Positions 3,665 to 7,330 of a stretch of 64,000 nucleotides of DNA are shown piece by piece. The stretch covers positions 3,904,001 to 3,968,000 of the forward strand of contig OZ245006.1 of assembly GCA_965223545.1 (NCBI GenBank). Direction: 5' to 3'. How positions within the stretch are numbered: the first letter of the stretch is position 1; the number at the start of each line of letters is the position of its first letter. The translations under genes were made by a program, and so were the position numbers. A model generated the notes under the pieces. It saw only the letters and a list, made by a program, of their open reading frames with translations, did not search any database and was not told the DNA's origin. Origin of the DNA: Planctomycetota bacterium. GTDB lineage: Bacteria; Planctomycetota; UBA1135; UBA2386.

Positions 3665-4105
3665 TCAAGCCGCGAGGTAGGCGTTGAGCATCCAGACGGT
3701 CTGCTCTTGTTCGTCGGCGAAGCCCTCGAGCAAGTTCGTGGTCGCCGCGTCTTCGGCCTCGCCGGCCGCGGCTGCCGCCGCCCGCAGGGCGGCGTTCAAC
3801 GTGGTGTAGTCGTCGCGCAACCGGACCACCATGTCGTTGGCAGCCGGGCTGCCACCATCCTCGCTCAGGCGAGTCACGGCGAGCACGTCCTTCATCGTGT
3901 AGAGCGGCCTGCCGCCGAGCGCCGCGATGCGCTCGGCCAGTCCGTCGATCTTGAGCGCGGCATCGTCGTAGAGCTCTTCGAACTTGGCGTGCAGCGCGAA
4001 GAAGTTGGGGCCGGCAACGGTCCAGTGGTAGCCCCGCAGCTTGTGGTAGAGCACCTGGTAGTCGGCGAGCAAGGCGTTGAGTTGGGCAGCGGTCGAGTCG
4101 GTCAT
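3665..4105 (-). CDS. dps: Dps DNA-protecting mini-ferritin
   Basis: ATG at 4105 with GAGGA RBS; YHWTVAGPNFFALHAKFEELYD and DGLAERI ferroxidase motifs; 146 aa. Confidence 0.93.
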   Translation of the reverse strand: MTDSTAAQLNALLADYQVLYHKLRGYHWTVAGPNFFALHAKFEELYDDAALKIDGLAERIAALGGRPLYTMKDVLAVTRLSEDGGSPAANDMVVRLRDDYTTLNAALRAAAAAAGEAEDAATTNLLEGFADEQEQTVWMLNAYLAA

Positions 4106-4164
4106 TTGGAGTCCTCGGGAATCAGGATCGAGAGCAGGATCGAACCAAAGCAGGCCGGATTCCA

Positions 4165-4201
4165 ATTGATTACCTTTACCCCTCTCATAACTTGTCCTTA
4201 T
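4165..4201. promoter_or_regulatory. OxyR-type operator between divergent dps and oxyR
   Basis: ATTG-N7-TTAC-N7-ATAA-N7-TTAT, matching the spacing and 11/16 positions of the OxyR consensus ATAG-N7-CTAT-N7-ATAG-N7-CTAT; overlaps the oxyR ATG. Confidence 0.8.
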
Positions 4202-5099
4202 GAATGAGGCACGCCCCAGTGTGCGCCAGCTGGAGTACCTGGTGGCGCTGGCCGAGACCCTCAACTTCGGCCGCGCCGCCGAGCGCTGCTTGGTCAGCCA
4301 ACCCGCGCTGAGCACGCAGATCCGGACTCTGGAGCAGCTCTTGGGAGCACCGCTGTTCGAGCGCGACCGACGCCGGGTGCTACCCACCGCCACGGGCCTG
4401 CGCGCCGCTGGGCAAGCCCGCGACGTGCTGCAGCGCATCGACGCGCTGGTGGAAGGGGCGCGCCACAGCCACCCCCTGTCGGGCGAGCTGCGTCTCGGGG
4501 TGATTCCGACCATCGCGCCGTACGTGCTGCCCAGGGTGGTGCCACGACTGACGCGACGGTTTCCCGATCTGCGCCTACAGCTGCGCGAGGACGAGACCGC
4601 GCGACTGGTCGAGCAACTCGAGCGCGGCACCCTCGACCTCTTGCTGGTCGCGCTGGAAGCTCCGCTGGGGGCCAACCAAACGCTCGAACTGTACCGGGAC
4701 TCGTTCGTGCTGATCGCGCCGCAGGACCACCGGCTCGCGGTGCAACGGACCGTCCGCGAAACCGATCTGGCGGGTCGCGATCTGCTGCTGCTCGAAGAAG
4801 GACATTGACTGCGACAGCAAGCGCTGGCGGTCTGCCAGCGGAGCGGCGCCGCTGAAACCACGGGGCTGCGGGCCACGAGCCTGCACACCCTGGTGCGCAT
4901 GGTCGGCGCCGGTGCGGGTGCGACGCTGTTGCCACAGATGGCGATCGCCACCGAAGTGCGCCGCGCCGACCGCATCACCCTGCGCCGCTTCAAACGCGAT
5001 GGCCCTCACCGGACCATCGGACTGTGCTGGCGGCCGAACTCCGCCCGCGCCGACGGATTTCGCGAGCTGGCGTCGGTGTTTCGCGACGCCAGCAGCTGA
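4200..5099 (+). CDS. oxyR: OxyR H2O2-sensing LysR regulator with selenocysteine (U203) at the sensing-cysteine position
   Basis: LysR HTH (RQLEYLVALAETLNFGRAAERCLVSQPALSTQI), GVIPTIAPY, then LEEGH-TGA(4806-4808)-LRQQALAVC and RATSLHTLVRMVGAGAGATLLP in frame to stop 5099 (299 aa). Aligns with E. coli OxyR LEDGHC199LRDQAMGFC208 and RATSLETLRNMVAAGSGITLLP. Confidence 0.9.
4822..4840 (+). promoter_or_regulatory. Bacterial SECIS-like hairpin of oxyR
   Basis: +14..+32 after UGA: CGCUGGC-GGUCU-GCCAGCG, 7-bp perfect stem; the GGUCU apex is also present in the E. coli fdhF SECIS (GCAGGUCUGC). Confidence 0.8.
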
Positions 5100-5113: not shown

Positions 5114-7330
5114 TCAGGACTCGCGGCCGGGTTTCGCGCTTCCCGAAGCCTTCGCAGCCGGCGAGGCCTTCGCGCCCGGCGTAGCCTTCGCGCCCGGCGG
5201 CGCTTGCGCGGCGGGGGCCGCCGGGGCCGGCGGCGGCGCGCTCGACCCGGCCGGTTTGGATGCCCCCTTCTTCTCCGGCTCGGATCGAGGAATCTGAAAG
5301 CTGTTCTCCACCGGCTGGGTGAGCATGAACAGATCCATCTGCGAGTAGTGCGCCGTGAGGCGCTCGATCGCCCCACGCGCGGCGACCGCCTGCTCGCGCA
5401 CGGCGTCGAACGGCTCGAGCAGCCGGCGGCCGTTGGCCAGTTCCGCCGCGACGACCGTGGCCTCACGCTCGATCTTGTCGCGCTGCTGGCGCAGCGCCTG
5501 CCGCACCGCCGTCGCCACCCGCTCGGTGTAGCCCCGCGCAAACCCCGCGACGATGCGATCGGTGGTCTCCTTGAAGAACGAGCGCTCGTACTCCGCCAGG
5601 CGCCGCGCCATCGCCTGCCGCGCAGGTTGGCCGAGGAACGCCTCCTTCTGCGCCGCCGAAAGGCGTTGGCCCGGGGCCTCGGCAGGGCCGAACAGGCGCT
5701 TGCGCAGACCGTTCTTGCTGCGCAGCAGGAGGCGGTCGTGCACGCGTGGCCGCAGCTCGACGTGATCCGTGCGCAACGGCGTGGGTGGCACCGCGACCAA
5801 CGCCGCGCGATCGGCGCCGCGATGGGCCGCGCGCCCGATCTCCTCCGCGTCGATCCCACATTCGGCCATCGCCGTGCGGATCTCCTCGGGAATCGCGAAG
5901 CCGACTCCGTCGTGCACCAAGCGCTCGCTCACTTCTTTGCTGATCGCGTTGATCAGCTCCTCTTGGTGCGTGGTCAAGCGCGGCACGAGCTCGCCCTTGA
6001 CCAACTGCTGGAAGCTCGCATCGCCGGCGAACCAGCTGCGCATGGCCTCGTGCAACGCGCGCGACGACCGCTCACCGACGTGCTGCGCAACGTCGCGGCT
6101 GGCCTCGTTGAGCTGATCACTGAGCGAGGCGAGTTGATCTTCCCAGCCAAAACCCTCGAGCCGCTCGATGGCCGCGAGACCGCGCTTGTGATGCTCACGG
6201 CGCTCGACCAGGCGGTCGATGCGCTTGCGCAATCGATTGATCTGCCCGTGGCCGGTGACGTCGACCGACTCCGTCAACAGCGTGCGCGCACGGCGCAGGC
6301 TGTCGCCCAAGAAGGCGACCATGTAGTCGGTGCTGTTGAGGTACTTGGTGAGGTCGTCGAAGAAGCGATCGAAGCCTCGCCGAGCGCCAGCGCCATCGTC
6401 GACGTTGCGGATCCTGGCGCTCGCCGCGCGTAGCAGATCGACCGGATAGATCCGCAGCCGACCGCTCTCGGCGGCCTGCTTGAGCGGCGCGGTCATCGCC
6501 AGATTCTCGAAGGCCTGCACGACACGCGTCGGATCGCGCTGCTCGAGGCTGGGCACCAACCGGCCGTCGGAGCTCAGATCTTGCTTGGTCGAATCGATGT
6601 TGACCAACAGGAAGATGCGGCTGAACAGCTCGAGCAGATCGGTGAACTCGGCGAACACCTGCTCCAAGAACAGATTGTCGCTGCGCACGACGAACACCGC
6701 GCAGGCGGCGGCGTTGCGGAAGTCGCGCGTCATCCGGCTGTAGCCGAATTTCATTCGGCTGTAGAGGCCGGGAGTATCGACCAGGATCGCCCGCGACTCG
6801 CCCAACCCACCGGCCGGCAGCTTGATGTCGATCCGATCGATGGCGCTGTGCAGGTGTTGGCGCGGATCGAACGTCTGGCCGGTGGCCTCGATCTCGCGGA
6901 TGCGCGCCGCCAGCTCCTCGTGTGCGGTGCCGACGAACTCCTCGAGCTTCTCCGCCGACTCGAACCTCTCGACGCGCCCGTCGTAGCGGCGCGCTTCGTA
7001 GCTGCGCCGACTGGCGTGCTGCACGAACACCATGCACGGATAGGCAGGCAGACTGCTGACTTCGCTCACGTAGCCGGCGGCGATGGCGTTCATCAGCGTC
7101 GACTTGCCGCTCTTCAGCGGGCCGAAGATCAAAACGTAGGCCTGCTGGTCGCGGACCTTGTTGCTCAACAGCTCGACCTGGCGCCGCAGATCGACGAGCG
7201 GTGTCTGGAGCGCTGCGGCCACGTCGCGCGGCGCCGAGGCAATGACCTCGGCGGCACGCCCCAGCGGCGCCTGCAACGGCCGAATGGTCCGGACGAACTC
7301 CTCGCAAAAACGGCTGAGAACAGTCTGCAT
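5114..7330 (-). CDS. Dynamin-like GTPase with helical C-terminus and low-complexity tail
   Basis: P-loop GPLKSGKST, ILVDTPG (G3), long helical region; tail with PGAKA-type repeats. Confidence 0.8.
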   Translation of the reverse strand: MQTVLSRFCEEFVRTIRPLQAPLGRAAEVIASAPRDVAAALQTPLVDLRRQVELLSNKVRDQQAYVLIFGPLKSGKSTLMNAIAAGYVSEVSSLPAYPCMVFVQHASRRSYEARRYDGRVERFESAEKLEEFVGTAHEELAARIREIEATGQTFDPRQHLHSAIDRIDIKLPAGGLGESRAILVDTPGLYSRMKFGYSRMTRDFRNAAACAVFVVRSDNLFLEQVFAEFTDLLELFSRIFLLVNIDSTKQDLSSDGRLVPSLEQRDPTRVVQAFENLAMTAPLKQAAESGRLRIYPVDLLRAASARIRNVDDGAGARRGFDRFFDDLTKYLNSTDYMVAFLGDSLRRARTLLTESVDVTGHGQINRLRKRIDRLVERREHHKRGLAAIERLEGFGWEDQLASLSDQLNEASRDVAQHVGERSSRALHEAMRSWFAGDASFQQLVKGELVPRLTTHQEELINAISKEVSERLVHDGVGFAIPEEIRTAMAECGIDAEEIGRAAHRGADRAALVAVPPTPLRTDHVELRPRVHDRLLLRSKNGLRKRLFGPAEAPGQRLSAAQKEAFLGQPARQAMARRLAEYERSFFKETTDRIVAGFARGYTERVATAVRQALRQQRDKIEREATVVAAELANGRRLLEPFDAVREQAVAARGAIERLTAHYSQMDLFMLTQPVENSFQIPRSEPEKKGASKPAGSSAPPPAPAAPAAQAPPGAKATPGAKASPAAKASGSAKPGRES

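Follow-up and report, generated by a model that had tools for sequence, protein, structure and literature searches.

The oxyR gene and its in-frame UGA

Positions 4200-5099 (forward strand) of the 64,000-nucleotide stretch analysed here (the window; Planctomycetota bacterium, assembly GCA_965223545.1, contig OZ245006.1, positions 3,904,001 to 3,968,000) hold a gene of the OxyR type. OxyR is the textbook thiol-based peroxide sensor. The gene forms one frame of 299 codons, from ATG 4200 to the terminator TGA at 5097-5099, whose sole interruption is a TGA at 4806-4808. This in-frame UGA, codon 203 in the context LLLLEEGH*LRQQALAVC, is aligned with the peroxidatic cysteine in the G-H-C-L motif of OxyR. 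Cys212, a candidate resolving cysteine nine residues after position 203, has its TGC codon at 4833-4835 (forward strand), overlapping the junction between the loop and the 3' arm of a hairpin that resembles a selenocysteine insertion sequence (SECIS). The initial annotation of the window had read the gene as an oxyR with selenocysteine (Sec) at the peroxide-sensing residue, and the comparisons reported here strongly support a Sec-encoding gene. Translation bears out its statements that the TGA alone interrupts the frame and that a second cysteine lies exactly nine residues further. With ordinary open reading frame calling the gene falls into two pieces, 4200..4808 (202 aa) and a remnant of 68 aa.

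The read-through protein has a LysR helix-turn-helix (HTH) domain (PF00126, residues 9-66, 74.3 bits) followed by a LysR substrate-binding, or regulatory, domain (PF03466, residues 92-297, 159.1 bits) in Pfam. Its best NCBIfam match, scored with Cys substituted for Sec, is OxyR NF008361 at 271.5 bits, below the curated equivalog cut-off of 329; Cys homologues of the same phylum lie at a similar distance from Escherichia coli OxyR. All 11 PDB sequence matches at E<=1e-30 are OxyR or OxyR2, and codon 203 is aligned to the Cys of DDGHCLH in Corynebacterium glutamicum OxyR (6g1b). The AlphaFold2 model, whose input was an alignment of 43 sequences (A3, composed of 8 Sec and 35 Cys forms of OxyR), has a mean predicted local distance difference test score of 94.4. 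OxyR proteins of C. glutamicum, Pseudomonas aeruginosa and E. coli are its top Foldseek matches, with a TMt of 0.88-0.89 and a root-mean-square deviation of 2.3-2.4 Å for E. coli 1i69.

Residues T104, T133, H202, position 203, C212, S227, L228, T230, T242, P245, R271 and R278 are invariant in alignment A3. The OxyR pocket of P. aeruginosa is described in PMC7231847 as Thr100, Thr129, His198 and Cys199; at the +4 offset read from the alignment, T104, T133 and H202 of the window protein would correspond to Thr100, Thr129 and His198. The genome of the window has one OxyR copy, its next-best LysR protein being 30% identical, and each of the other genomes with a Sec form likewise gives one OxyR match.

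Reality of the codon and recurrence in other species

The TGA is covered by assembled contigs of two sequencing runs, X1 and X5, while contigs of runs X3 and X6 do not reach it. A 10-kb contig of X1, a run from which the assembly itself may derive, contains the whole oxyR stretch including the TGA with 0 differences, and a contig piece of X5, from a different study, covers 4778-4904 including the TGA, again with 0 differences. The codon announced by the initial annotation is thus the one found in an independent study.

Among 210 loci coding for OxyR homologues, the aligned codon is TGC in 157 and TGT in 41 (198 Cys codons together, in line with the proposal that the TGA occupies the peroxide-sensing residue), TGA in 9, of which 8 are distinct, and TTG in 1; it was not located in 2. 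The duplicate, L074, agrees with the G285 locus in its TGA context, in the sequence that follows and in its read-through translation. Of 401 genomes of the phylum searched in six frames, 57 contain OxyR, with 58 matches. Seven of these have exactly one in-frame stop, which is always TGA and always at the equivalent of codon 203; none of the 58 has an in-frame stop at any other position. The seven come from G000 (family f1), G344, G237 and G285 (f34), G250 and G266 (f30), and G347 (f63). In all of them the TGA directly follows L-L-E-D-G-H, and 95-107 open OxyR-like codons come after it, with the second Cys kept. Within family f34 (29 genomes) the TGA is found in 4 of 9 OxyR genes, which adds G508, and a metagenome locus, L164, carries a further TGA-type oxyR. 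There are in total nine distinct loci of the Sec type verified in DNA (the window, G344, G237, G285, G508, G250, G266, G347 and L164), spanning four GTDB families and one metagenome contig.

The N-terminal 202-residue protein, used as a query, gave 21 matches of 200-204 aa among its 120 best, all ending in ...DGH; some of these gene calls sit on contigs of 69-318 kb. Two of them (P0008 and P0012) are the N-terminal parts of DNA-verified loci, which leaves 19 further calls, known as protein ends at which the type of stop codon was not read. The other TGA loci and the DGH-ending calls are 44-64% identical to the window OxyR. Homologues that keep the TGA with a conserved downstream frame, which the initial annotation proposed to look for, thus amount to eight further DNA-verified loci, next to the 19 DGH-ending calls. 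Sec-OxyR is very probably present in several Planctomycetota lineages, where it would be mis-annotated as truncated.

Sixty relatives of the same family and order yielded 21 OxyR matches in 20 other genomes, none with a stop; their best identity is 58% and Cys occupies the aligned column in 20 of the 21. The alignments continue past the TGA as far as residue ~296. Scans of genome contigs and of metagenome contigs for OxyR homologues, each limited to the best 80 of more than 590 matches, gave one TGA locus (the G285 duplicate) and one new TGA locus, respectively. A distant OxyR-like homologue of 37% identity (L043, in G009) has H-H-L-F in place of G-H-C-L and is devoid of the sensing Cys.

The hairpin downstream of the UGA

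The SECIS-like hairpin CGCUGGC-GGUCU-GCCAGCG occupies positions 4822-4840 (forward strand), with a 7-bp stem (4822-4828/4834-4840) and the loop GGUCU at 4829-4833. It starts at the 14th nucleotide after the TGA, as the initial annotation had described it, and its apical loop lies 20 nt after the UGA. Folded alone it reaches -12.5 kcal/mol (z -3.48), and 0 of 200 shuffled sequences fold as well. Longer contexts are less distinctive: the minimum free energy (MFE) structure of 66 nt contains the hairpin with z -1.68, 39 nt give z -0.91, and the 60-nt fold chooses a different structure (z -0.12). The published model of the bacterial SECIS (bSECIS), as given in PMC13188914 (Fig. 2), has an apical loop of 3-9 nt, an upper stem of 4-16 bp, a G in the first two loop positions, a distance of 16-37 nt from the UGA and an MFE <= -7.5 kcal/mol. 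The window hairpin agrees with it in its 7-bp stem, its loop starting with GG, its 20-nt spacing and its -12.5 kcal/mol.

Hairpin energy was rejected as evidence, the model being permissive where DNA is GC-rich. For the best hairpin allowed by loose bSECIS rules, the median is -18.8 kcal/mol in 8 Sec and 97 Cys loci matched for GC content (p = 0.57), and 88% of the GC-matched Cys homologues pass a similar filter at <= -12 kcal/mol. The informative part of the hairpin evidence is the GGUC-loop type, which is shared with other Sec genes of the genome. A stem of at least 5 bp with a GGUC(N) loop 15-35 nt downstream follows 7 of the genome's 14 candidate Sec codons, which had been chosen by protein context (redox motif) before structure was examined, and these seven loops begin 18-31 nt after the UGA, like that of oxyR. 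The background of such hairpins in the contig is 532 of 135,037 TGA triplets (0.39%) and 1,458 of 353,131 TGC triplets; 7 of 14 against 0.39% corresponds to a binomial p = 5e-14.

A broader motif, a stem of at least 5 bp with an N-G-U-N(N) loop 15-35 nt downstream, is found at 9 of 9 Sec-oxyR loci versus 15 of 204 Cys loci, over a background of 2.8% of the genome's TGA triplets. Fisher tests give p = 4.9e-9 for the first eight Sec loci (8/8 vs 14/196) and p = 5e-5 when made by clade against GC-matched Cys loci (5/5 vs 11/97), values that overstate the significance, the motif having been set post hoc from the Sec sequences and the loci being related. The hairpin stands at +20 in the window, G237 and G347, at +24 in G508, at +28 in G344 and G285, and at +33 in G250, G266 and L164, a spread of distances that fits several independent origins. 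Compensatory changes, which had been put forward as a check on the hairpin, were found in part: in the alignment of the +20 class (4 sequences) 89% of cells are paired and 2 pairs show a compensatory change, a synonymous Leu change CUG->CUC pairing with a Gln-to-Glu change CAG->GAG, but the covariation falls short of significance, its score being reached in 49 of 500 shuffles.

SECIS-like hairpins also occur at the place of the Sec form in three Cys-type OxyR genes: L096 and L231 have a GGUCU loop on an 8-bp stem at +20, and L259 a CGUG loop on an 8-bp stem at +22. One of the three comes from a metagenome-assembled genome of Kofleriaceae and one from G253 in f34, a family with Sec forms. These hairpins may be relics of a reversion from Sec to Cys, or pre-adaptations.

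Phylogeny and selection

A maximum-likelihood tree was computed from 208 distinct N-terminal halves of OxyR (27 Sec, 181 Cys) and left unrooted. The Sec label requires 8 changes by parsimony, versus a mean of 25.7 after shuffling (0 of 500 shuffles as low), and at least 3 of these changes are forced by well-supported branches. The Sec forms fall into several clades that are themselves diverged (end branches of 0.04-0.44 changes per column); the TGA has therefore been kept through much sequence divergence. As judged from this tree, Cys and Sec have been exchanged in OxyR on more than one occasion, which is also the case in other selenoprotein families. The window OxyR pairs with a metagenomic Sec form, P0036, with a value of 93 in the Shimodaira-Hasegawa-like approximate likelihood ratio test. 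It groups apart from the Cys-type OxyR of its own GTDB family (L024-L027), with modest support, a hint that it was acquired by horizontal transfer or is an old paralogue.

In the close trio L064/L067/L164 (dS ~0.5), dN/dS downstream of the TGA is 0.33-0.36 versus 0.22-0.25 upstream. The ratio is informative for this trio only, since the other Sec pairs are saturated (dS 0.6-1.6). Together with the residues invariant in A3, this value upholds the conservation of the downstream half noticed in the initial annotation.

Sec machinery and selenoproteome of the genome

The genome of the window (8.1 Mb, 91% complete) contains the components of the Sec pathway that the initial annotation had suggested searching for: selA (464.3 bits), selB (318.2 bits), selD (345.8 bits) and a tRNA-Sec (74.2 bits; called SeC with anticodon tca by ARAGORN), all scoring over curated cut-offs. 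Its selD has an in-frame TGA of its own. The other Sec-oxyR genomes tested have selA and/or selB in 6 of 6 cases. This co-occurrence is weak evidence, because selA is present in 288 of the 401 genomes of the phylum.

A scan for TGA flanked on both sides by a strong coding signal in third-position GC content gave 143 candidates, 17 of which were fetched after inspection of their context (loci L237-L253, outside the window, e.g. C1:1874881, 6713570, 4702574, 6226245, 5051259, 4365069, 7238170 and 4468924). Fourteen of these have their in-frame TGA at a redox motif, with a Pfam domain extending across it. These are two deiodinase-like proteins (FGSYT-U-PPF), three W-U-GPC thiol-disulfide oxidoreductases, a peroxiredoxin, two AhpD/CMD-like proteins (CHY-U), four thioredoxin-fold proteins, an HMA-domain protein (MT-U-GGC) and a DUF3179 protein. 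The organism therefore uses Sec heavily in thiol-redox proteins. L239 (FG-GAP), in which the Pfam matches do not span the TGA, was not counted as a selenoprotein.

The paralogues L240 (C1:2993531-2994640, forward strand) and L246 (C1:6246386-6247582, reverse strand) belong to no Pfam family and were left out of the count of confirmed selenoproteins. Each carries an in-frame TGA, at the same position in the two, within LG.(L/I).G(Y/F)(T/L)-U-SA(A/G)QSLR, followed by a GGUC-loop hairpin in one of them and by a CGUGU-loop hairpin in the other, and they may represent an uncatalogued selenoprotein family. The HMA-domain protein, L238 (C1:6727465-6728022, forward strand), has its Sec in the metal-binding motif MT-U-GGC, with a GGUC-loop hairpin; the main text of PMC13188914 (2026) makes no mention of an HMA or heavy-metal selenoprotein.

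Neighbouring genes

A Dps-type ferritin-like gene of 146 aa (3665..4105, reverse strand; PF00210, 103.3 bits, residues 7-145) is divergent from oxyR and is likely a direct target of its product, as suggested by its position. The intergenic region of 94 bp (4106..4199) presumably holds both promoters and the OxyR operator, a role read from the head-to-head arrangement. At 4125-4150 it contains a direct repeat GGATCGA-N5-GGATCGA and a CAATTG palindrome. On the other side, a dynamin-family GTPase gene of 738 aa (5114-7330, reverse strand; PF00350 and MMR_HSR1) is convergent with oxyR, 15 bp past its stop.

A head-to-head partner in peroxide defence is found at 7 of 8 Sec-oxyR loci. It is Dps in the window and in G237 (L047), a haem peroxidase of the katG-like type (PF00141) in G250, G266 and L164 (loci L064, L067 and L164), and AhpC followed by a CMD/AhpD-like gene in G344 and G347 (L046 and L072); G285 (L049) has only a Pirin gene nearby. 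The retention of such a partner at seven of the eight loci argues for a working regulator.

Weighing of the alternatives

The TGA could mark a pseudogene, in which a TGC-to-TGA nonsense mutation left a non-functional 202-aa fragment or no product at all. One base change is enough for this, standard gene callers do truncate the gene, the patchy occurrence of OxyR in the phylum (57 of 401 genomes) indicates that its loss is tolerated, and the OxyR genes detected in other genomes of the window's own family are free of TGA. Decay does not fit the recurrence of the TGA at eight other loci, joined by the 19 gene calls at 44-64% identity, nor a downstream frame that is intact, conserved and devoid of other stops, nor the dN/dS measured in the trio; the hairpin is typical of the genome's selenoprotein genes and the divergent peroxide-defence partner is retained. 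Both a pseudogene and a sequence error are disfavoured because the lone TGA recurs in many diverged species with conserved downstream sequence, and we hold the pseudogene to be very unlikely. A sequencing or assembly error hiding a true TGC or TGT is extremely unlikely, because the same TGA recurs in eight assemblies of other species; the cover consists of contigs and X1 may be the source of the assembly itself, but the contig piece of the other study agrees over 4778-4904 without a difference.

Two further explanations accept the codon and differ in the product. The UGA might be read through as another residue, by near-cognate insertion of Cys or Trp or by insertion of Cys via the Sec machinery. 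The residue inserted is one that we infer, and a Cys product would be a normal OxyR. A general reassignment of TGA is excluded, as the gene itself terminates on an ordinary TGA, and a leaky stop kept across many species instead of TGC is hard to explain; with a complete Sec pathway and many selenoprotein genes of the Cys/Sec type sharing the same hairpin type in the genome, decoding as another residue appears very improbable. Alternatively the 202-residue product could itself be the functional form, regulating constitutively or dominantly, with the sequence after the TGA conserved for some other reason or translated on its own. At a UGA, Sec insertion always has termination as a competitor, and the fragment would keep the HTH and the linker helix according to the secondary structure of the AlphaFold2 model. 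The cut, however, falls in the middle of the fold of the LysR regulatory domain (92-297), the 96 downstream codons align over their full length with OxyR, including the invariant C212, S227, L228, T230, T242, P245, R271 and R278, and there is no start codon context to define a separate downstream gene. We give this explanation very little credit.

Several points weigh against the selenoprotein reading itself. The OxyR score stays under the equivalog cut-off, the 19 DGH-ending calls are known by their protein ends, and there is no TGA in the 15 OxyR-bearing genomes among 90 others of the window's own family. The closest relatives of the gene with which its hairpin could be compared are at most 64% identical. 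Under loose bSECIS rules GC-matched Cys homologues fold equally good hairpins by energy, the N-G-U-N(N) motif was defined on the Sec loci, the hairpins of the different Sec clades, at their different distances, are not homologous to one another, and neither the covariation nor the widespread selA is decisive. Sec insertion and the selenium-sulphur switch are deduced from sequence, and we infer likewise the target genes and any kinetic advantage of Sec-OxyR. Taking these points into account, we assign a probability of about 0.88 to the reading of this gene as a selenoprotein gene, coding for a full-length functional OxyR with Sec at the peroxide-sensing residue.

Proposed mechanism

SelB loaded with Sec-tRNA(Sec) would bind the GGUCU-loop hairpin 20 nt after UGA203, leading to insertion of Sec in place of termination. 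The Sec203 selenolate would sit in the conserved OxyR pocket with T104, T133, H202 and, putatively, R271 (RTIG motif), and react with H2O2 to a selenenic acid. Attack by Cys212 would then form an intramolecular selenenyl-sulfide Sec203-Cys212. Its counterpart in E. coli OxyR is the Cys199-Cys208 disulfide. The regulatory domain would be switched by the Se-S bond, the tetramer would in turn activate the divergent dps gene (katG-like or ahpC-ahpD genes in relatives), and cellular thiol reductases would reset the sensor. In density functional theory calculations on the OxyR pocket of P. aeruginosa, Sec came out as favourable both thermodynamically and kinetically (PMC7231847, 2020).

A more speculative extension, which we consider unlikely, is that Sec-OxyR ties the oxidative-stress regulon to selenium supply, one gene integrating peroxide and selenium status. 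Under selenium-replete conditions UGA203 would be decoded to give a hypersensitive full-length sensor that withstands over-oxidation and is rapidly reset. Under selenium scarcity, translation would stop at UGA203 and yield a 202-residue fragment with the DNA-binding domain and without half of the regulatory domain, a dominant form that would sit on the operator and not be inducible.

Significance and comparison with known systems

To our knowledge, known selenoproteins are almost all enzymes. If the selenoprotein reading is true, no transcription factor containing selenium would have been described before this natural Sec-OxyR. No description of a Sec-containing OxyR or LysR regulator was found in the full-text literature searched, the initial annotation having known of none, and PMC7231847 states that no Sec variant of OxyR had been discovered as of 2020. 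An OxyR/LysR selenoprotein is also absent from the main texts of PMC9312934 (2022), PMC13188914 (2026), PMC12013277, PMC13326102 and the preprint 10.1101/2022.07.06.499078, from BSepDB (main text and one supplement, 4.0 million characters) and from deep-Sep (main text and 4 supplements). More than 110 selenoprotein families are reported in PMC13188914; within the sources just named, Sec-OxyR would be a family missing from the catalogues.

Sec-OxyR would supply the variant behind the prediction made in PMC7231847, so that U203 and U203C become directly comparable. The repeated Cys/Sec switches (at least 3; 8 by parsimony) would constitute a replicated natural experiment on selenol versus thiol in a signalling protein rather than an enzyme. 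With several natural Cys/Sec pairs of independent origin, this one sensor family offers material on why selenium is chosen, possible reasons being sensitivity, resistance to over-oxidation or speed of reset. Because present annotation treats Sec-oxyR genes as truncated fragments or as pseudogenes, many Planctomycetota-type genomes would have a mis-described peroxide regulon.

The window protein has the same domain order as OxyR of E. coli (1I69/1I6A), P. aeruginosa (4X6G) and C. glutamicum (6G1B/6G1D/6G4R). It shares with them the place and context of the G-H-[C]-L sensing motif, where a redox-active residue would be present only upon Sec insertion, the partner Cys nine residues on, the Thr/Thr/His pocket and a divergent peroxide-defence gene; it differs in the UGA (Sec) codon, in the SECIS-like hairpin inside the coding sequence and in the proposed selenenyl-sulfide instead of a disulfide. 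LysR_Se/HrsM (PMC9312934; NF040786) is likewise a LysR-family regulator linked to selenium biology, but it regulates selenium-related genes and is itself no selenoprotein (PMC9312934). Against NF040786 the window protein scores 123.5 bits, with a cut-off of 250, and is OxyR-like instead. The FmdB-family selenoprotein TIGR02605 (UxxU) is the sole entry named 'regulatory' in the accessible part of PMC13188914. It is a small zinc-ribbon protein without demonstrated DNA binding, whose fold and function are unrelated to LysR/OxyR.

Close parallels in chemistry are the Sec thiol peroxidases and the AhpD-like/CMD-like and deiodinase-like families tabulated in PMC13188914, which likewise have a Cys/Sec pair at a peroxide-reactive or redox-active position. 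As in Sec-oxyR, these peroxidase-type families have a bacterial SECIS directly 3' of the UGA and Sec and Cys forms scattered on the tree; the genome of the window contains members of them that carry the hairpin type of Sec-oxyR. These families are enzymes, whereas the window protein is a predicted DNA-binding transcription factor that would use Sec for signalling and not for turnover.

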